The notes under the pieces: model-generated
The model's input: the letters and a program-made list of their open reading frames with translations, nothing else
Told to the model about the DNA's origin: nothing
Databases searched by the model: none
Part shown: positions 232-60,009 of the stretch, piece after piece
Position numbering within the stretch: the first letter of the stretch is position 1
Layout of the letters: each line of letters starts with the position of its first letter
IMG/VR virus record: IMGVR_UViG_3300042275_000518
Location: 32,001-96,000 of that record
Direction: 5' to 3' (one strand)
Length of the DNA stretch: 64,000 nucleotides
DNA from: a virus
Taxonomy: Duplodnaviria; Caudoviricetes
Program-made: the position numbers and the translations under genes

Positions 232-525
232 CATTAATTTTCTTCAGCTAAATTCGTTAAATTTAACCCGCTTTCGCTGCTGCATATTTCTATGCAGATG
301 AGACTATATCTTCATCTTTCGATGCCTTCCGCTTCCACTCACTTGAGTGTACTCTCTCTCGAGATAGTCGTTGAACCTTCATCTCACTGAGATGCTTGGC
401 TGCTGATTGCCCAATCTTTCAGATTTTCAAACCTTCACGATTACCTTTGCAGGTTGCGTTGTGGTTCTGAAAGCTTAAGGGTGTTCCAGCAATTAAAAAG
501 GTTTATACCGCGCCAGACAATTTTA
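232..525 (-). mobile_element. Group I intron 1 of the RNAP beta-like gene (294 nt, no ORF)
   Basis: P1 CCGCGU/GCGCGG; AAUUGCUGGAA, AAUCAGCAG, UUCAACGACUA and AAGAUAUAGUC core elements; terminal G. Confidence 0.92.
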
Positions 526-3486
526 ACGCGGTGGATCAGCCATTGTACTTGTAAAGCTTGAAATCATTTCAGCAGGGCTTAGAATATTTGTTGGTTCTAA
601 CGCAGCTTTATTGTCAATATCCGGAACATAACCACGAATTGAGTTAAGTTTTGGATTATATGATAAGCCACGAGTTACCCCTGAATTTGGCCCAAATGGT
701 GTTGCATTACCTGCAACTATTCCAACCATTGAGTCGTCATAAGCTCGAAGTTCTAGTGTATATGCACTTCCAAGATTTATTCCACGGAATCCCTTGGCAC
801 TTACAGCTGCAATTTGTTCCATTTCTAACACAGGGTTAAGTGTTGAATGGTCATTAACATTTGGCTCTGTCAACAATCTACTTACAAGTATTTCACGAGG
901 AATATCTAGACTTTCGACATTACGTCCATTTAGTTTACCTCTTTGATATCTAACATAAGCATCTGCTAATATTTGATACATCATTGCATTAACAATTTCA
1001 TTTCCACGAACACGGAAGTTTCTAATGTCATTTTGTGGACGATAACTGTTATTTGTCAACATTGTATTTGCTAATAATAACAAATCAATTGGGTCAGTTG
1101 GAAGTTTAAGATCTTTCAGAACTTCTTTTGTGATTGGGTCGATCATAACATTCAAGTTAATACGCAATGTATTTCGAATATAAATTGGTTGGTCTAGTTT
1201 TTCAATAAAGTAGTCTGTATATGGACCATCTGTATCGAAGTCAGCAAATTCATAAGTTTCAGTTCCCATTGTATAAAGAATATTTAACAATAGTGTATTC
1301 TTAATTGTATCTTCATAGTACAAGAACTTGTCTTTAAATTCAACCTCAACATAATTTGGATCTTTCTTTAATCTTGTTGGACTAAGTTTATATTTCACAT
1401 TATATCGTTTAAGAATATCTGTGATTCCATTCATTAAACCAACAACGACAAAGATTGGATAAGTTTCACCAAGAATTTTCATCTTAGAATAGATATAACT
1501 CTTACCAATTGTTGGAAGAGATTCATTCTTAGTTTTCCCAAGTATATTTTCATAGATGAATTCAAATAAACCTTCGGCTAGTTGGCCTCCGCCCTGATTT
1601 GGAATATACTCATAAACTTTCTTATCTTCTAAATATAATAATCCATTCTTGATTTTATTTAAACCGATTGGTGTCATATTTTCATTGAAGAAAGCATCAT
1701 CAATATCCATCATATCGATCTCTTCTTTTAATTCTTTTCTATTGAAAATAATTTCATATTTTGGATTTGAGATTCTGCTTAGGCTATCAGCAAGTTCTTC
1801 ATACTCGAAGTCACTTGTAAAACCAGCGTTAACAATTGAATTAGATCCAAACTCAATTTCTATATTTTCATTTTTGATATCTTTTAGCGTTTTTAATAAA
1901 TAAGCATTCTTTCTTGAAAGTTTACCATTAGTTCTTTCAATTGTGATTTTATTATAATTGGTTGTAATTTCAACACGATCTTGCTTAGTTTTAACAATTG
2001 GCAAACGAACTAATTGCTTAGTCATTACTTTCTTATTACCACCAAGGTAGAAGTATCTTTTATCAACAATTTTTGGAATATCTAATGCAAATGAAAGAGT
2101 TTTTCCTTCATCTGTTTTGAATCTTACAAAGATAGTTTCTACTTGTTTAAAATCATCGCTCGTATCTTCAATTTTAAAACTATCAATTGTTAGTGGAAGA
2201 TAGTATGAACTCGAAAATCCAGCCAATATATTCATCATATCTTTCTTGAATTGTTTCTTGTTATATTCTTCATCTAGACTTGAAAGTTTACTTTCTTTAA
2301 CACGCTCATCAACGCCTTCAACTTCAAATCTGTCAGCTTCGATTATATCTTCACCAGCATCTAAATCTTCAATACTACCAACGACTTCAACCTCTTTTTC
2401 AAGGTTTTTAGATAATTGTGCTAGTCTCTCAGCCGCAGCTTTTTTAGTTTCAACATATCTGATCGCTTTTACTTTAACTTCTTGATCGTTTTCTATTTCA
2501 CTAACAAGTTCAGAGAATGGTTTATCAAGATTAAGTGGGTTTTCAAGATATTTATCGATTTTTCTATCAATTGCTAACATGATATCTTGCTCATCTTTAT
2601 TAGCTGCCTCAAAGTCAGTTAAATTATCTGCTTTAATTTTCTTAGCCATTTTTGATAAGACAAGTTGTTTAATTTCTTCTTTTGTATTTTCTATTTCATC
2701 CTCATCAGATAGATCAACAGCATCTGCTGTCACATCGTCAAGAGCATCTGTTCCATTATTGAAATTATTCAAACGGTTGATTCTACTGAACATAATTGTA
2801 TAATCTTTTTCTGGATCAAATTTCTTCATATCTAATGGATAGAGCGCATCTGCGTTTGGATTATAGAAAATAATTAGATCAAATTTCTTATATAAATCAT
2901 AATCTAAACTATTTCTCTTAATGCCACGTAGGAATAATAATAACGGATTAATAGTATCATAATCTGTTAGAACTCCTGCTTTAAAGGCTGGAATATAATC
3001 AACCATTGGAAAGATGAGATATTTCTTTTCATATTGAACTTCTTCCATTTTTTCATTAAGAAGATCTTCAAAATATCCGTATAAATATTTTTGTAGTAAT
3101 ACACCCGATTTCATTCTTCCTGCTAATTTTGCAGTTTGAGCATATTCAGGAACTGTATTGTATATCATGTTTAATCCGTTATAGATATTTGGATTGATTT
3201 TTCCAATTTTAATCTTTCCATTTGTTTTTGCTTTAACATCTGTATAGTATTCTTTTTGATTTAATCTCATTGGTTTTCTTCCCATAGGACGAATTATACG
3301 AGGAATAAAAATACTCATCATTTGTTGTGGACGGAACAGTTTACTTGTAATAACAGCTTCTAGTGCAGTGTTATTATCTGCTCCGATTAATACTAAGTTT
3401 TGATGAGTTTTTCTCGTTGTCTCAAAATTTAGAGTACGATTCTTCACGATTCGTTCTAAGTTAAGTTTGCTTGGAGATACTAACAT
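526..3486 (-). CDS. Phage multisubunit RNA polymerase beta-like subunit, exon 1 (probably virion RNAP)
   Basis: Beta-like motifs (IPKIVDKRYFYLGGNKK..KQL; R.YD.SM.G...TP.G..SG); ends at an intron; preceded by a late-type promoter. Confidence 0.8.
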
Positions 3487-6281: not shown

Positions 6282-7400
6282 TTATTTGTCATCTTCTTCT
6301 AGTAAGAACTCTGGATTAATTACCTTAAATGAAGTTTTATAATCAAATGTTCTTAACACAAGACCTTCACGTTTTTGTTCTGGTCTAACAACAGATTGCC
6401 CCTTACTAAACTCAACTAATTCTTTAATAGTTGCTGGTAAAGTATAGTCTGCTTCAATTAATGGAACTACTAATAGTTCACCAAAAGCTGCTTTCAGTCT
6501 TTCTGTTATCAATTGTTCCATGTCACTATAATTAAGTTTAACATTATCTATGATAACGTTAAAGATAAATAATTTTAGTTCATCAAATTTGTATTTATTT
6601 CCTTGAACTCCTGGTCCACAAATTTCACCTTGAATTACAACTCTTTTAGCTTTATATAAGTTCTTAATTGCTTTCAACACCTTTTCAAGATTGTATTTAT
6701 GAAATACTTTTGCATAATTTGAGTCACCAGCAATTGGAACACTAAGATTTCTACTGCACACACCATAATGATTTTTATCATCGATATATGCTGTACAACT
6801 TTGTCCATCTAGTTTCTCAGTTACAAATACTTTTGATTTGCTTTCTAAAAGTTCATTGAATACTCTAACGATATTTTGAACTCTTGTCTCATCTGTCTTT
6901 GAAATCCAACCTGGAAATGCTGTTTGTTTGAACTTTTTCTTGCGCATTTCTCTATACCATTTAAATCGCATTAAGAATTTTCCTAATCTTGATTTTGGTT
7001 TAGGGATATGAACTTCACGCTCAATTTCAGCTTCTGGGTCATATTTCATAATTCCTAACTCTTTAGTAACGTCATCACCAAGTTTGTATTTCTTACCATT
7101 TAAAATGCTCAATGGAAGAACTAGACCTTGTGAGATTTGCTTTCTGAGTTTAATTGTTCTGACTCTGAATTTTCTGTCTCTTAGAAACTCAAATTCGGGT
7201 CTATCTGGGACAATACTGTCAATTTCGATGTATACAACAAGGTCTCCCACGTTTATATTTTCATCTTTTTTGACAACACATTCCCAACCATCAACCATAA
7301 CCATTTCAATTCTGTCAGCACCTTCAATTGGATGCTTAGCAGCAATTTCACGAATGGTCGCTAATTTTCTTTCTGATTTAATAAATTTTGGATTTGCCAT
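6282..7400 (-). CDS. ATP-dependent RNA ligase (DRB0094/Rnl5-like)
   Basis: RKLATIREI..IEGADRIE N-terminal domain; TEKLDG, QGEICG, REGLV, SFKVINPEFL. Confidence 0.9.
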   Translation of the reverse strand: MANPKFIKSERKLATIREIAAKHPIEGADRIEMVMVDGWECVVKKDENINVGDLVVYIEIDSIVPDRPEFEFLRDRKFRVRTIKLRKQISQGLVLPLSILNGKKYKLGDDVTKELGIMKYDPEAEIEREVHIPKPKSRLGKFLMRFKWYREMRKKKFKQTAFPGWISKTDETRVQNIVRVFNELLESKSKVFVTEKLDGQSCTAYIDDKNHYGVCSRNLSVPIAGDSNYAKVFHKYNLEKVLKAIKNLYKAKRVVIQGEICGPGVQGNKYKFDELKLFIFNVIIDNVKLNYSDMEQLITERLKAAFGELLVVPLIEADYTLPATIKELVEFSKGQSVVRPEQKREGLVLRTFDYKTSFKVINPEFLLEEDDK

Positions 7401-54735: not shown

Positions 54736-55236
54736 TTAGGCTATAGTAAAAACTATATCAAATATAATATCTTTATTTTTAATTGCATCATATACTGTTT
54801 GACTAGGTGGTTCAGTTAATGTGACTTTCACGCTAACTGCAATTGCTCCAGTACTTTCAAACGTATATGTTTCGTTGGTAATATTAAAATTTACTAAACT
54901 GCTATAATCTGAGCTACCACCGATTAAAACATTTTCAATATTAACTGTTAAATGTGTAGCGCCTGCTTCAAGAGCCTCATTATTTATAGAAACTTCATAA
55001 ACGTAGGTAATTGAAGTTACTTCATTACCTGTTGCTGTTTGAGTATCTGGAATTAAAATGCCAGATCCTGTTGTTGTTTCGCTTACAATTAGTTCGTCCC
55101 CTTCACCAAGAGTAATTGTTTCACTTTCTGTCTGTGTAAGCATATTCCACCAAGCATATGTTACCCCCACTGTCGATACAAATGCAAATATCATTACGAT
55201 AAATGCTGATACTACTTTTCTTTTTAATTTTTTCAT
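54736..55236 (-). CDS. Secreted beta-rich protein with SipW-type signal peptide (TasA/camelysin-like)
   Basis: MKKLKRK..hydrophobic..GVTYAWW..T....TITLG; C-terminal I.F...F strand. Confidence 0.65.
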   Translation of the reverse strand: MKKLKRKVVSAFIVMIFAFVSTVGVTYAWWNMLTQTESETITLGEGDELIVSETTTGSGILIPDTQTATGNEVTSITYVYEVSINNEALEAGATHLTVNIENVLIGGSSDYSSLVNFNITNETYTFESTGAIAVSVKVTLTEPPSQTVYDAIKNKDIIFDIVFTIA

Positions 55237-55274: not shown

Positions 55275-55349
55275 AAATGGTAGTCTGGCGATCCCTTAGG
55301 GACCCATGACTTTGTGCCCATACATTACTGCATGTTTACCCTTACATTT
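55275..55349 (-). promoter_or_regulatory. c-di-GMP-I (GEMM-I)-like riboswitch
   Basis: GGGUAAAC-stem-GUAA-stem-GGCACAAAGUC...CUAA...GACUACC; lies between a late promoter (55363-55374) and the RBS. Confidence 0.7.
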
Positions 55350-55393
55350 TTTTCTTATTATTTAAATAATTGTTATAAATATTTTAAATATTT

Positions 55394-55467
55394 TGGAGGC
55401 CAATACCAGATTCGAACTGGTGCTCAGGGAGTTGCAGTCCCTTGCCTTACCACTTGGCTAATTGGTC
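55394..55467 (-). tRNA. tRNA-Cys(GCA)
   Basis: Cloverleaf, U73, encoded CCA. Confidence 0.93.
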
Positions 55468-55471
55468 TATA

Positions 55472-55565
55472 TGGCGGAGAAGGTGGGATTCGAACCCACG
55501 CACCGGATATTAACCGGTCTACTCCCTTAGCAGGGGAGCCCCTTCAGCCTCTTGGGTACTTCTCC
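55472..55565 (-). tRNA. tRNA-Ser(GCT)
   Basis: Long variable arm, G73, encoded CCA. Confidence 0.95.
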
Positions 55566-56217
55566 AAATAAACAACCTAGTGAAACTAGATTCTATTATT
55601 CTTGATGTTGTCTGGACCGTATAATCTCATATGTCTTAGAATTGAGAATAATGATCTAGATTGATCCTCCCTTGACATTCTCATTACTTCAATGTCCATT
55701 AAATTCATACTGAAAAACATTTTTACACTCTCCTTTTTATAGTAATATTATTAGAATAAACTTCCAAATAGATTGTTCTAATAAGACTAATATAAATTCC
55801 TAGAAGGAGAAAAGAGCAATTCCCTGGCTGCAATAGCGGGAATCTCTGGGTCTCTTTTCAATAGCCCCGACAATATAGTCGATGGTTTGACAGTCCATTC
55901 GTCTGGCTCAGGTTTGAGGCATTGGCACGCCATTTTATTAACTACGTGTGGATACTATCCACATCATAGTATAAATTATATGTTTAAAAGAAAATTTTTC
56001 TTTTAAATTTGTCCATACTCAGAAATGTTCCCTCATACCATTTCTAAGGAATGTAATCTCCCTTACCATAATATGAACTCCCTGGACTTTGTTCACATCT
56101 GTAATCCACTGGCTGGGACCAAAGCACAGCATAACGACCTGCACTTGAAACTTTTTATTTATAGTCGCTACAATAGATTACATCCTTTAATATATTTTAT
56201 TTCTTATTTCTTAATGA

Positions 56218-56294
56218 TGGCCGGAAGAGTGAGAATTGAACTCACCTACTCCGGATTTTCAGTCCGGCGCTTGAACCTACTCAGCTATCTTCCG
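56218..56294 (-). tRNA. tRNA-Phe(GAA)
   Basis: Anticodon loop CUGAAAA, encoded CCA; atypical C1-G72 pair and G73. Confidence 0.85.
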
Positions 56295-56308
56295 ATTAGA
56301 TGCAAATC

Positions 56309-56617
56309 CTAGAGGATTTTTGTTACTTTACCATATATATTCTTTTTAGTAACCCAACCATTAACATGTTTATGGTTATTACTAATCTGAAATTGATTAC
56401 CTTTAATTGCTGAAATCAAATGTAAATAATGGTGTCCTCTTACTTTGCACAAAACAATATCGCCCTTATTTAAAGATGAATAATCTTCAATTGGAGATAC
56501 TTCACAAACTTGACCAGATTTCAAGATTGGGGTCATAGAATTTCCAAAACCTTGAACTAAACAAGTTTCTCCATTAAGAAGTTTTTGTGCAGTAATTGCA
56601 TTTTCTTTGTCATACAT
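56309..56617 (-). CDS. S24/S26 peptidase-like protein (Ser/His type)
   Basis: GNSMTPILKSG ... KGDIVL ... YLHLI. Confidence 0.65.
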   Translation of the reverse strand: MYDKENAITAQKLLNGETCLVQGFGNSMTPILKSGQVCEVSPIEDYSSLNKGDIVLCKVRGHHYLHLISAIKGNQFQISNNHKHVNGWVTKKNIYGKVTKIL

Positions 56618-56641
56618 AATTTTATTTCCTTTCTTTAAAAA

Positions 56642-56728
56642 TGGAGCGGGGAAACGGCATTGCACCGTACTCCTTCTACATGAAGCATCTAGAATTCATG
56701 CATCTGTTCTACTCATAAAACTACCCGC
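56642..56728 (-). tRNA. Atypical tRNA-like RNA with a Gly-like acceptor
   Basis: GCGGG...CCCGC-U-CCA; T-loop UGCAAUG; no canonical anticodon arm. Confidence 0.5.
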
Positions 56729-56731
56729 ATA

Positions 56732-56808
56732 TGGTAGCAGTGGTTGGACTTGAACCAACGCTCCCGGAGGTATGAGCTCCGTGCTTTGACCATCTAAGCT
56801 ACACTGCC
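56732..56808 (-). tRNA. tRNA with CAT anticodon (elongator Met or Ile2)
   Basis: Anticodon loop CUCAUAC, encoded CCA. Confidence 0.9.
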
Positions 56809-57293
56809 ATATATTTTTGACGAATTTTTGAAAATTAGGTAAGTTAATGATGGAGTTGAACTTATCTCGTTGAGAAGCTTCGTCTTCTCCTCTTATCCTG
56901 GTTTGCAAAGTTCTACCGCTTAACCTTGGACCCTTCCATCACTACTACTTTACCTTTTGTTGCTATTGAACAGGATACATAATAATTCTAGATGCACTGT
57001 CTTCACACACATATTCCTCAACAGAATCTGGTCGTTCAATAATATTTCGAACTTGTAGATTATGTTGATCTAGGACTTTAAGCATGAAACGAAGTGCGGA
57101 TTTTTCCGATTTAAAAGTTTTAGGTTTTAGATCCGTTCTGTTAACAACTGGTTGTACAGTATAACTCATAGCATTAATCTCCTTTAAATTTATTTGACTT
57201 TTAACGACTTGCTTAGGTCGAGATAAAGAAGATTAATGTGAGTCTAAAATTTATTGTTTAAGATTTTCTATTACATTTTTTATAATATTATTT

Positions 57294-57370
57294 TGGCACG
57301 CCGAGTAGGATTCAAACCTACGACCCTCTGATTCGTAGTCAGATACTCTATTCAGCTGAGCTATCGGCGC
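57294..57370 (-). tRNA. tRNA-Arg(ACG)
   Basis: Anticodon loop CUACGAA, encoded CCA. Confidence 0.92.
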
Positions 57371-57884
57371 ATTTTTCTAATAATATTTTTCTATTTTTTA
57401 ATTCATGTAATCCCAATGTTATTTTTCTATGGCATATAGGGCATAAAACAATTAGATTCTCTAGACTATTGTTATCTCTATTAGAATCTATATGGTGAAC
57501 TTCCAAAATTCTATTATCTTTATCCCAGCCACAAACAGCACATTTGTGGATATATACTTTTAATGCTCTTTCTCTATATCCGTTAGAGCCATTTATATAA
57601 TTTGGATGATTTTCACCTGTTCTTATATTTAATTTATTTGTATAACTAGCTGAACAACTTTTATTACAGAATACATTTCCATGTTTTGTTTTATTTATCT
57701 GGGATTGAGTACGATATATAATCTTCCCACATGATGCACATGTTTTTTGAATTTTACCTTTATTCTTTCGACACGTATCAGAACAATAAAAATTGTAACC
57801 ATTTTTAATATATGCATTATATTTCTTTAAAGGTACATTAAATGGCTTACCACATTTCCCACATTCTACTTTTACTTTTGTCAT
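57348..57884 (-). CDS. HNH homing endonuclease within the tRNA cluster
   Basis: CxxC/YCS..C repeats; EVHHIDSNRDNN..ENL..LCPICH; 3' end overlaps tRNA-Arg; late promoter at 57900-57911. Confidence 0.9.
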   Translation of the reverse strand: MTKVKVECGKCGKPFNVPLKKYNAYIKNGYNFYCSDTCRKNKGKIQKTCASCGKIIYRTQSQINKTKHGNVFCNKSCSASYTNKLNIRTGENHPNYINGSNGYRERALKVYIHKCAVCGWDKDNRILEVHHIDSNRDNNSLENLIVLCPICHRKITLGLHELKNRKILLEKCADSSAE

Positions 57885-57943
57885 TTTATTTCCTCCTTTT
57901 AAATAGTTGTTCTCATATTTGGGAAAGAAAATGTCTTATGAGA

Positions 57944-58019
57944 TGGGGTAACTAGAGGGAATTGAACCCTCGATGCCGGAGTCACAATCCGGTGCGTTAA
58001 CCACTTCGCCATAGTTACC
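57944..58019 (-). tRNA. tRNA-His(GTG)
   Basis: Encoded G-1 pairing with C73; anticodon loop UUGUGAC; encoded CCA. Confidence 0.95.
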
Positions 58020-58033
58020 ATGTAGAAGAAGAG

Positions 58034-58519
58034 TTATCTTCTTCTTTTACTAAATCTATCCGCTACAGTTGATGCAGCTAAACTATCTGGTTTGATTCTA
58101 TAATCAAATCCGTAAGCTTCAACATATCCTGTAATTTCAGATATGAACGCAGAAGTCGGTCCATTTTCACCGATGTCAATATCGATAGTAATCTTAAAAT
58201 CAAGATCTCTATTGAATAAATATTTCAATAACCTTTCACCAGTTTGAATACTTTGTGTAGCTTCATGATACATCCTATCTCTTAACGTATGGAATTTCTT
58301 TTCAACTCCATTTAACCAGAAGAATATTGCGCCTTTGCCTTTTCGATATAATACAATAACGTTCGAAACGCTAGTGTTACTATATTGTTGACTATCAGTT
58401 CCAATATAAATTTTGAATGTATCTGGCGGATTATTTTCGATACTGTCTGCAATTATTTCAAACACTTTCTGTTCGCTTATACGACCATAAGTGAATGAAT
58501 TATAGACTCTCTCTTTCAT
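58034..58519 (-). CDS. YkuK/DUF458 RNase H-like protein
   Basis: IYIGTDSQ, GKGA.FF, LR.R...EA..S, IDIG.NG, KPDS.AAS.VAD. Confidence 0.85.
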   Translation of the reverse strand: MKERVYNSFTYGRISEQKVFEIIADSIENNPPDTFKIYIGTDSQQYSNTSVSNVIVLYRKGKGAIFFWLNGVEKKFHTLRDRMYHEATQSIQTGERLLKYLFNRDLDFKITIDIDIGENGPTSAFISEITGYVEAYGFDYRIKPDSLAASTVADRFSKRRR

Positions 58520-59255: not shown

Positions 59256-59282
59256 AATTTCTCTTCTTTCTTTTATATTATA

Positions 59283-59655
59283 AAATATTCATAACCCGGA
59301 TTCTGTTTATCTTTTATCTCAATCTATACAATAGAATTGCTGAATCATCGTCTGGTAAATCAACAATTTCAGGTGTATTATTACTGAGAAATCCAAGTCT
59401 ATTCCCTATCGCACAATTAGAATCGTCTGAACCAAATTCCAATATCCTTATTATTTTAACGAAGTATTTTGAGGGGTTTATAAAAAATTTGCTAGTTTCC
59501 CCAGGCACTTCCTCAACTTCAGCAAGGTAATCGTATTTTGTAACCTTAACTATACTTTTACCGTTACTATATTCCCAGGAGTCTCCTATATAATATTTGA
59601 TATTGATCTCTCCTTTTTATATTTTTAAATATTCATAACCCGGATTCTGTTTATC
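59283..59655. repeat. 29-bp direct repeat (59283-59311, 59627-59655) duplicating the RNase P RNA 3' end
   Basis: AAATATTCATAACCCGGATTCTGTTTATC is identical in both copies; similarity extends about 13 bp further. Confidence 0.9.
59314..59601 (-). CDS. Tagged hypothetical protein with an ATC start (non-canonical start or pseudogene)
   Basis: Frame open from ATC at 59601 after an AAGGAGAG RBS (xKYYIGD...); ends LPDDDSAILLYRLR. Confidence 0.6.
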   Translation of the reverse strand: MKYYIGDSWEYSNGKSIVKVTKYDYLAEVEEVPGETSKFFINPSKYFVKIIRILEFGSDDSNCAIGNRLGFLSNNTPEIVDLPDDDSAILLYRLR

Positions 59656-60009
59656 CTATGATTTATCTAAGCCTCTACCATAATTTGAGTTGCTATCCAG
59701 CCAGTGCCAGCCGTTTCATTTAGTATTGGAAATATCTCAACTATATATTACCTTTATAATGGAGTTTAGGCAATTGCTTTCGCATCTCTCCAACTCATTC
59801 CCCAGGCCATTAAGAAAACCTGCACTATAAAGAACCAATCTAACTCGTCTCTGTTCCAGCACTGCCATAGTTTATTAAACTACAGCGTTGAACCGTTTTA
59901 ACCTTTCGGTGATAGTCCGGAGTTTCCTCACAAACCAGTGTCAATTATAGAATCTCTAAAGAGTTCCCACATTGTATCGTTTTAAGTCTGTGCCATAGGT
60001 TGAATATTT
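59627..60009 (-). ncRNA. rnpB: RNase P RNA (phage-encoded, minimal, type-B-like)
   Basis: P1 AAAUAUUCA/UGAAUAUUU; P2 CCUAUG/CAUAGG; GAGGAAACUCCGGA and ACAGAAUCCGGGUUA form P4; ACAGAGACG, UGAAACG, L15 GGUA, AGAUAAAU. Confidence 0.88.

Follow-up and report, generated by a model that had tools for sequence, protein, structure and literature searches.

RNase P RNA, the ribozyme that matures tRNA 5′ ends, is regarded as a cellular housekeeping gene. Bacteria carry it as class A (RF00010; E. coli M1 RNA, encoded by rnpB) or class B (RF00011; Bacillus, Mycoplasma), archaea have a form of their own (RF00373), and bacterial RnpA proteins can partner RNAs of either class. The 5′ ends of tmRNA are made by RNase P, and in class A RNAs the helices P9, P13/14 and P18 make known inter-domain contacts. 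Diverged RNase P RNAs of the candidate phyla radiation are missed at Rfam thresholds; they lack P13, P14, P16, P17 and P18, some of them also lack P12, and about two thirds have no CCA-binding motif (PMC8172020). As cited in the same article, the RNase P RNA of M. fermentans is without P12 (PMC8172020), and megaphage genomes at Rfam thresholds yielded only tRNAs and a tmRNA (PMC8172020). Among viruses, an orthopoxvirus (camelpox) encodes an RNase P-like RNA with some structural similarity to RNase P RNA and no cleavage of pre-tRNA in vitro (PMC3001073). This inactive look-alike was the only viral case found in the literature, and no phage RNase P RNA was described there, as far as we found, with subscription journals outside the coverage.

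The stretch of DNA analyzed here (the window; 64,000 nucleotides) covers positions 32001-96000 of a 189,901-base IMG/VR record with 31% G+C and an estimated completeness of 74%. Its sequence supports identification of the record as that of a jumbo phage, uncultured and a distant relative of Bacillus phage AR9. The RNA polymerase (RNAP) beta subunit shares about 30% identity with its counterparts in AR9/PBS1-like jumbo phages of Bacillus, Staphylococcus and Listeria, one virion protein matches AR9/PBS1 and staphylococcal jumbo phages, and the RNA gene described below is flanked by phage genes on either side. Further genes in the window specify an NAD-dependent ligase, a topoisomerase IA, an RNA ligase and a nucleoside deoxyribosyltransferase. 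Searches of IMG/VR with a 907-aa protein and RNAP beta found no close kin. A group I intron (280-534, minus strand; 90.7 bits over the full Rfam model) overlaps by 12 nt the 3′ end of a 987-aa RNAP beta-like ORF (523-3486); in AR9, the annotation of the beta gene joins six pieces.

On the minus strand of the window lies what is probably a genuine phage-borne RNase P RNA gene, a member of a tRNA-adjacent subfamily whose product would process phage pre-tRNAs together with host RnpA (Table 1). As the initial annotation had described, direct reading of this strand gives all five conserved regions (CRs) in order, with P1 and P2 closing the ends; the same canonical order, CR-I to CR-V, is obtained from the cmscan consensus and from the covariance model R1 introduced below. 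P3 is followed by CR-I (GAGGAAACUCCGGAC), P4 pairs AAC-U-CCGGA with UCCGGGUU and has the bulged U, and P5 is CUAUC/GAUAG. P7 is a weak helix of 4 bp, P10/11 is AGUGCUGG/CUGGCACU with CR-III leading directly into its 3′ strand, and J5/15 is CAA. P15 runs through GCUUAGAUAAAU (CR-IV) into the P2 3′ strand with nothing between, and direct reading confirmed the earlier observation that P15.1, P18 and P19 are absent, as are P6/16/17, P9 and P13/14. The substrate-reading domain is intact in its P7, P8, P10/11, P12 and CR-II/CR-III modules, with P9 absent. The RNA had been called a minimal catalytic domain, which is apt for its C-domain but not for the whole molecule, as this keeps CR-II/CR-III and an enlarged P3 and P12. 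The region had also been called ORF-free, but trivial ORFs of 34-46 aa do lie within it.

Table 1. Features of the RNase P RNA gene and its surroundings, in window coordinates.
Feature	Position	Strand	Basis or remark
RNase P RNA gene, 383 nt	59627..60009	(-)	direct reading; Rfam RNaseP_arch 26.8 bits; R1 138.3 bits over 59636-59929
P1 5′ strand AAAUAUUCA	60001..60009	(-)	perfect 9-bp complement of 59627-59635
P2 5′ strand CCUAUGG	59993..59999	(-)	pairs with UCAUAGG at 59655-59661
P3, enlarged, 64 nt	59929..59992	(-)	closing helix CACAGAC/GUUUGUG
CR-I and P4 5′ strand (AGGAAAC-U-CCGGA)	59916..59928	(-)	C at 59922 in place of the usual G
Hairpin ACC-GAAA-GGU between P5 and P7 (P5.1 place)	59901..59910	(-)	folds
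P8 hairpin GCUGUAG...CUAUGGC, loop UUUAAUAAA	59864..59886	(-)	nearly invariant within the subfamily
CR-II AACAGAGACGAG	59844..59855	(-)	also read as ACAGAGACGAG; Rfam and R1 alignments
P12, enlarged, branched, 124 nt	59720..59843	(-)	constrained fold; contains the GCGAAAGC hairpin
CR-III AUGAAACGG	59711..59719	(-)	Rfam and R1 alignments
P15 hairpin (CUC/GAG, 3 bp)	59673..59689	(-)	11-nt loop L15 AAAUUAUGGUA with GGU for the tRNA CCA end
CR-IV GCUUAGAUAAA	59662..59672	(-)	direct reading; also read as UAGAUAAAU
CR-V and P4 3′ strand ACAGAAUCCGGGUUA	59636..59650	(-)	G at 59639 pairs with C at 59922
P1 3′ strand UGAAUAUUU	59627..59635	(-)	pairs with 60001-60009
Small ORF bracketed by repeats	59314..59616	(-)	ends ...DDSAILLYRLR; no Pfam family
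Repeated 3′-terminal 29 nt of the RNA and 12 nt of 3′ flank (second copy)	59271..59311	(-)	direct repeat of 59615-59655
YkuK-like RNase H-fold protein (PF04308/DUF458)	58034..58519	(-)	Pfam E 1.2e-41
Six co-oriented tRNA genes (Cys, Ser, Phe, Met, Arg, His)	55394..58018	(-)	all encode CCA

Folding constrained to these helices, with P4 left out, gave -79.6 kcal/mol, the unconstrained minimum being -89.4, and the P3 hairpin was given by unconstrained and constrained folds alike; relatives have a P3 of 3-5 bp at the same place. The first base of P1 is shared with the stop codon (60011-60009) of the ORF upstream, so that a classical promoter would not fit there. AR9-type phages use polymerases of their own for transcription, and a sigma-70 promoter and terminator scan of the locus, with a model that is not meaningful for such a phage, stayed at chance level.

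Rfam was run at its curated gathering cut-offs and then in E-value mode. At the curated cut-offs, the window RNA was not called as RNase P. In E-value mode, the archaeal model gave a full-length match of 26.8 bits (E 1e-5 for the region and 5.7e-7 for the genome; cut-off 84), in whose alignment P1-P3 are misplaced. An Infernal search with the class A and class B models had been proposed as a check; it returned sub-threshold matches to both (24 bits for class B, cut-off 97; a local match of 11.5 bits for class A, cut-off 100), with every score far below its cut-off. Relatives of the window RNA were found by RNase P motif pattern scans of IMG/VR and metagenome contigs, and R1 was built from four of these alone (contigs L072, L100, L115 and L116), with the window sequence excluded. 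The model spans CR-I to CR-V, and support for P1-P3 is by pair counts only. R1 finds the window RNA at 59636-59929 on the minus strand with 138.3 bits and an E-value of 1.6e-27, a match beyond chance.

In the alignment of these five sequences, 95.2% of cells are paired and 33 pairs are changed on both sides; none of 500 shuffles was as good, and sliding the partners left 31-40% paired. The closing helices P1, P2 and P3 have 83%, 97% and 100% of cells paired, each with changes on both sides, P1 covarying and five of the seven P2 pairs changing on both sides. P15 also covaries (CG/GC and UA/CG), P7, P8 and P10/11 are supported by pair counts, and the L15 motif AUGGUAG is conserved in the subfamily. 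Of the five aligned members, only the window RNA and L100 have the P5.1-like hairpin; L072, L115 and L116 do not. A larger alignment of 20 sequences, viral RNase P RNAs plus a few from cells, has 96.4% pairing in the core helices, and the eight pairs of P4 reach 98.8%, with seven of them changed on both sides. This pairing evidence supports the window RNA being a structurally maintained RNase P RNA homologue.

Cellular RNAs have G-C at the third P4 pair, and the G in CR-I is near-universal. The window RNA has C-G at this pair (59922 with 59639) in place of the usual G-C, which had been read as a compensatory change arguing for a maintained structure, and the swap proved to be real and to recur in ten tRNA-associated RNase P RNAs. 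The 20-sequence alignment divides evenly, with ten C-G and ten G-C sequences, and all ten of the former come from viral or metagenome contigs, where they are in or next to tRNA arrays. By comparison, the seven canonical class A genes that come from contigs without tRNA genes (255-328 bits; a small sample), and are probably host DNA, all have G-C. The recurrent flip from G-C to C-G offers a ready-made test of base identity at a near-universal P4 pair.

With class A RNAs, the window RNA has in common the P1-P5 core, a P4 with the bulged U, the order CR-I to CR-V, a J15/2 of UAGAUAAAU leading into P2, P7/P8/P10/11/P12 with CR-II and CR-III, and the GGU for CCA. It differs from them in being without P6/P16/P17, P9, P13/P14 and P18, in having an L15 that is a hairpin loop rather than an internal loop, and in its C-G third P4 pair. 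Shared with class B are a hairpin at the P5.1 place, the lack of P13/14 and P6/16/17, and an L15 close to the loop of a class B RNA on contig L076 (AACCCAAAUAAUGGUAGGGGC); the cultured phage relatives infect Bacillota, and P12 is missing from the class B RNA of M. fermentans as it is from subfamily members L072 and L100. Unlike class B RNAs, however, the window RNA has no P10.1, P15.1 or P19. The archaeal form provides the best Rfam match and likewise has no P13/14 or P18, but the score is far below the cut-off and the context of the window RNA is bacterial, with a tmRNA gene and AR9-like genes. All structural features of the RNase P clan (CL00002) that were tested are present in the predicted fold, which has the full set of class-defining helices for neither class A nor class B.

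Closer comparisons can be drawn with reduced and virus-encoded forms. The candidate-phyla-radiation RNAs serve as the only RNase P RNA of their cells and reach at most 38 bits with the phage subfamily model, and the window RNA, in contrast to most of them, keeps the CCA-binding motif. A hairpin L15 with AUGGUAG is also found in two Patescibacteria genomes, L102 and L107. Their RNase P RNAs (6561-6836 and 2291-2566, respectively) are near-identical in bins labelled Saccharibacteria and Dojkabacteria, and either one bin label is wrong or the gene is shared. The orthopoxvirus RNA is likewise virus-encoded and RNase P RNA-like, but it belongs to an animal virus and has no tRNA gene context, whereas the phage RNA keeps every conserved region. 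Finally, miniature phage RNAs of about 150-250 nt (L014, L073, L080, L086 and L097) are also located within or next to tRNA arrays and score below or near the Rfam cut-offs, and many have the same P4 C-G swap. These have lost the substrate-reading domain, whereas the window RNA keeps CR-II/CR-III and an enlarged P12, and the match between its subfamily and the miniature forms is only 39-43 bits.

The four relatives used for R1 share 69-84% of 176 core columns with the window RNA, and a protein-led search found a sixth member on contig L131 (156 bits). Six contigs thereby carry the subfamily (the window, L072, L100/L126, L115, L116 and L131), and its members score 138-232 bits with the subfamily model, compared with at most 38 bits for the five cellular genomes tested. 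Judged by sequence, this is a small, tRNA-adjacent subfamily on viral and metagenome contigs that is separate from the miniature phage forms. P12 varies from 124 nt in the window to about 60 nt in L115, about 30 nt in L116 and none in L072. The L072 RNA (680-884, minus strand; 205 nt) is a natural deletion without P12, and the L100 RNA (2840-3036, plus strand; 197 nt) is a natural deletion without P12 and CR-II, in which GGCUGAUAU is joined directly to GAAACGG. This deletion series on one core with 69-84% identity makes the need of a bacterial-type RNase P for its substrate-reading domain directly testable.

AR9-type RNAP beta was not detected on the L072 and L100 contigs, which hold the closest RNAs, so the RNA subfamily extends beyond a single phage lineage. 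The initial annotation had also suggested a survey of related jumbo phages, and here the outcome was negative, with no R1 match in AR9, Staphylococcus phage PB50 or Listeria phage LPJP1; since these cultured relatives are without such an RNA, it is not required for that lifestyle. A blastn search of the window RNA against 50,697 GenBank phage records gave no match, and two other phage-array RNase P RNAs matched only a Salmonella draft genome and short Acinetobacter "phage" contig pieces.

The gene had been placed near the tRNA cluster. The tRNA association was upheld, but the gene (contig 91627-92009) is actually inside, and co-oriented with, a 19-kb tRNA/tmRNA island (contig 87.4-106.5 kb). 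Over the whole record, 24 tRNA genes covering all 20 amino acids and one tmRNA gene are encoded, all on the minus strand. The L15 GGU had been connected with CCA-encoding phage tRNAs, and this holds for the entire set, with the loop reading AAAUUAUGGUA and CCA encoded by all 24 genes. No gene for a CCA-adding enzyme was found in the record, and the encoded CCA ends match both this absence and the retained GGU. The six co-oriented tRNA genes listed in Table 1 are likely RNase P substrates.

Several other elements were observed in and around this island. The tmRNA gene (contig 96376-96715, minus strand) lies 376 bases past the window end and encodes the tag ANTQELAFA; the ending AFA in place of LAA is, we presume, reminiscent of Mollicutes tags. 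An HNH endonuclease ORF (57348-57884) and an S24 peptidase-like ORF (56309-56665) are located among the tRNA genes on the minus strand. A c-di-GMP-I riboswitch aptamer (55276-55350, minus strand; 55.8 bits, cut-off 35) is found just downstream of tRNA-Cys and upstream of a 166-aa ORF (54736-55236) with no Pfam family.

The window RNA is most likely an active ribozyme that would use host RnpA in the maturation of phage tRNAs. It would be cut out of a long minus-strand transcript, bind host RnpA, and cleave the 5′ leaders of the phage pre-tRNAs and probably of the pre-tmRNA as well, with the L15 GGU pairing with the encoded CCA and CR-II/CR-III reading the tRNA elbow. The benefit to the phage would be a supply of tRNA maturation during the shut-down of host gene expression. 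As the helices that brace the two domains (P9, P13/14 and P18) are missing, a strong dependence on protein is expected, and the RNA alone may be weak or inactive. Speculatively, the GAAA-capped P5.1-like hairpin and the GCGAAAGC hairpin in P12 could act as substitute contacts.

The absence of these struts, together with the base swap in CR-I and the lack of a detected phage rnpA, would also be compatible with an RNase P-like fold that is not an active enzyme and serves as a decoy for host RnpA or pre-tRNAs, or as some other regulator; such roles were discussed for the RNase P-like RNA of orthopoxviruses, a viral precedent that lacked activity (PMC3001073). We consider such a role unlikely. A decoy for RnpA would need only P2-P4 and the CR-IV/V region, whereas the positions for catalysis and docking (CR-I, CR-IV, CR-V, the bulged U, the L15 GGU and CR-II/III) are all kept across the subfamily. 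In addition, P4 is kept by compensation, and the place among tRNA genes fits a processing role.

The initial annotation had seen no rnpA in the window, and the same is true of the whole 190-kb record (74% complete), in which six-frame translation gave no match to PF00825 at E <= 10. None of the flanking ORFs (94 aa upstream, 94 aa inserted and 231 aa downstream) belongs to a Pfam family or resembles RnpA, and the upstream ORFs of L115 and L116, which are alike, have by eye no evident likeness to that of the window. A YkuK-like gene is located 16 nt upstream of tRNA-His and 1.1 kb downstream of the RNase P RNA. PF04308 homologues are found beside the RNase P RNA in L115, L116, L100, L076 and L131, and in five of the six subfamily contigs the distance is 0.1-3.4 kb, often in the order RNA, tRNA, YkuK-like gene. 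In the YkuK-like ORF of L115, an in-frame TGA (617-619, minus strand) is aligned with a standard-code W in the L116 homologue (GHGGFWFHTVDW), which suggests that TGA encodes Trp in L115.

This recurrent proximity, which extends to the class B RNA of L076, the matching of PF04308 in only 2 of 14 control genomes and the lack of a detected rnpA would all fit an active ribozyme that works with a phage protein other than RnpA, whether the YkuK-like protein or one encoded in the missing quarter of the genome. We nevertheless find this quite unlikely. Of 34 viral PF04308 loci in IMG/VR, 29 have tRNA genes within 4 kb (eight or more in 18), but only five hold an RNase P RNA, which points to a tRNA-island protein in general. 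Moreover, PF04308 is absent from the L072 contig (48% complete), and the family is not known to bind RNA (PMC3985635). A self-contained tRNA-maturation module, made up of the ribozyme and the neighboring YkuK-like protein and acting instead of or alongside host RnpA, is decidedly improbable; if true, it would add a new protein partner for RNase P RNA and a first function for DUF458 as a phage tRNA-island family.

The 3′ end of the RNA is present twice. The 41-nt direct repeat is 95% identical, with the second copy 344 nt downstream of the first, and R1 has a weak match at 59292-59352. The bracketed ORF has a good ribosome-binding site and no ATG, GTG or TTG nearby, with only ATC/AAT at the start place. 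From its sequence, this arrangement looks like a single-gene insertion that regenerated the RNA 3′ end. Stable-RNA genes are common integration targets, and an inserted ORF bracketed by a repeat of the RNA 3′ end is what might be seen if the RNA were the decaying remnant of a host rnpB that the phage had captured and now retained solely as a place for genes to insert. This is very unlikely, as the gene is complete after the insertion, its subfamily is found on six contigs, and its helices covary across contigs sharing 69-84% of core positions, which is not expected of a relic. The duplication also bears on mis-assembly, in which host DNA would have been joined to the phage contig. That explanation is without direct support and is extremely improbable: the duplicated RNA 3′ end 344 nt downstream belongs to the same gene string, the RNA abuts phage ORFs without a spacer and has the upstream stop codon overlapping P1, all relatives adjoin tRNA genes, and the cellular genomes tested give at most 38 bits against 138-232 for the subfamily.

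Copies on other viral contigs extend beyond this subfamily. The CR-IV-to-CR-V motif was found in 33 stretches of IMG/VR, at least 15 of which are inside same-strand tRNA arrays. Single 15-16-mers from CR-I/CR-V occurred in IMG/VR at about chance level, with L014 the only real case. Four contigs pass the Rfam class A cut-off (L068 with 209 bits, L087 with 148, L061 with 143 and L065 with 136). Viral contig L076 carries a class B RNase P RNA (1685-2045, minus strand; 223.8 bits) in a locus with 11 tRNA genes, where the RNA is followed by tRNA-Arg and a YkuK-like gene, which means that both bacterial classes have phage copies. Others are below the cut-offs, including L067, L083 and L014 (43 bits; class A cut-off 100), and annotation at Rfam cut-offs misses such phage RNase P genes. 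If the window RNA is active, large phages would bring a ribozyme besides tRNAs, tmRNA and RNA repair enzymes.
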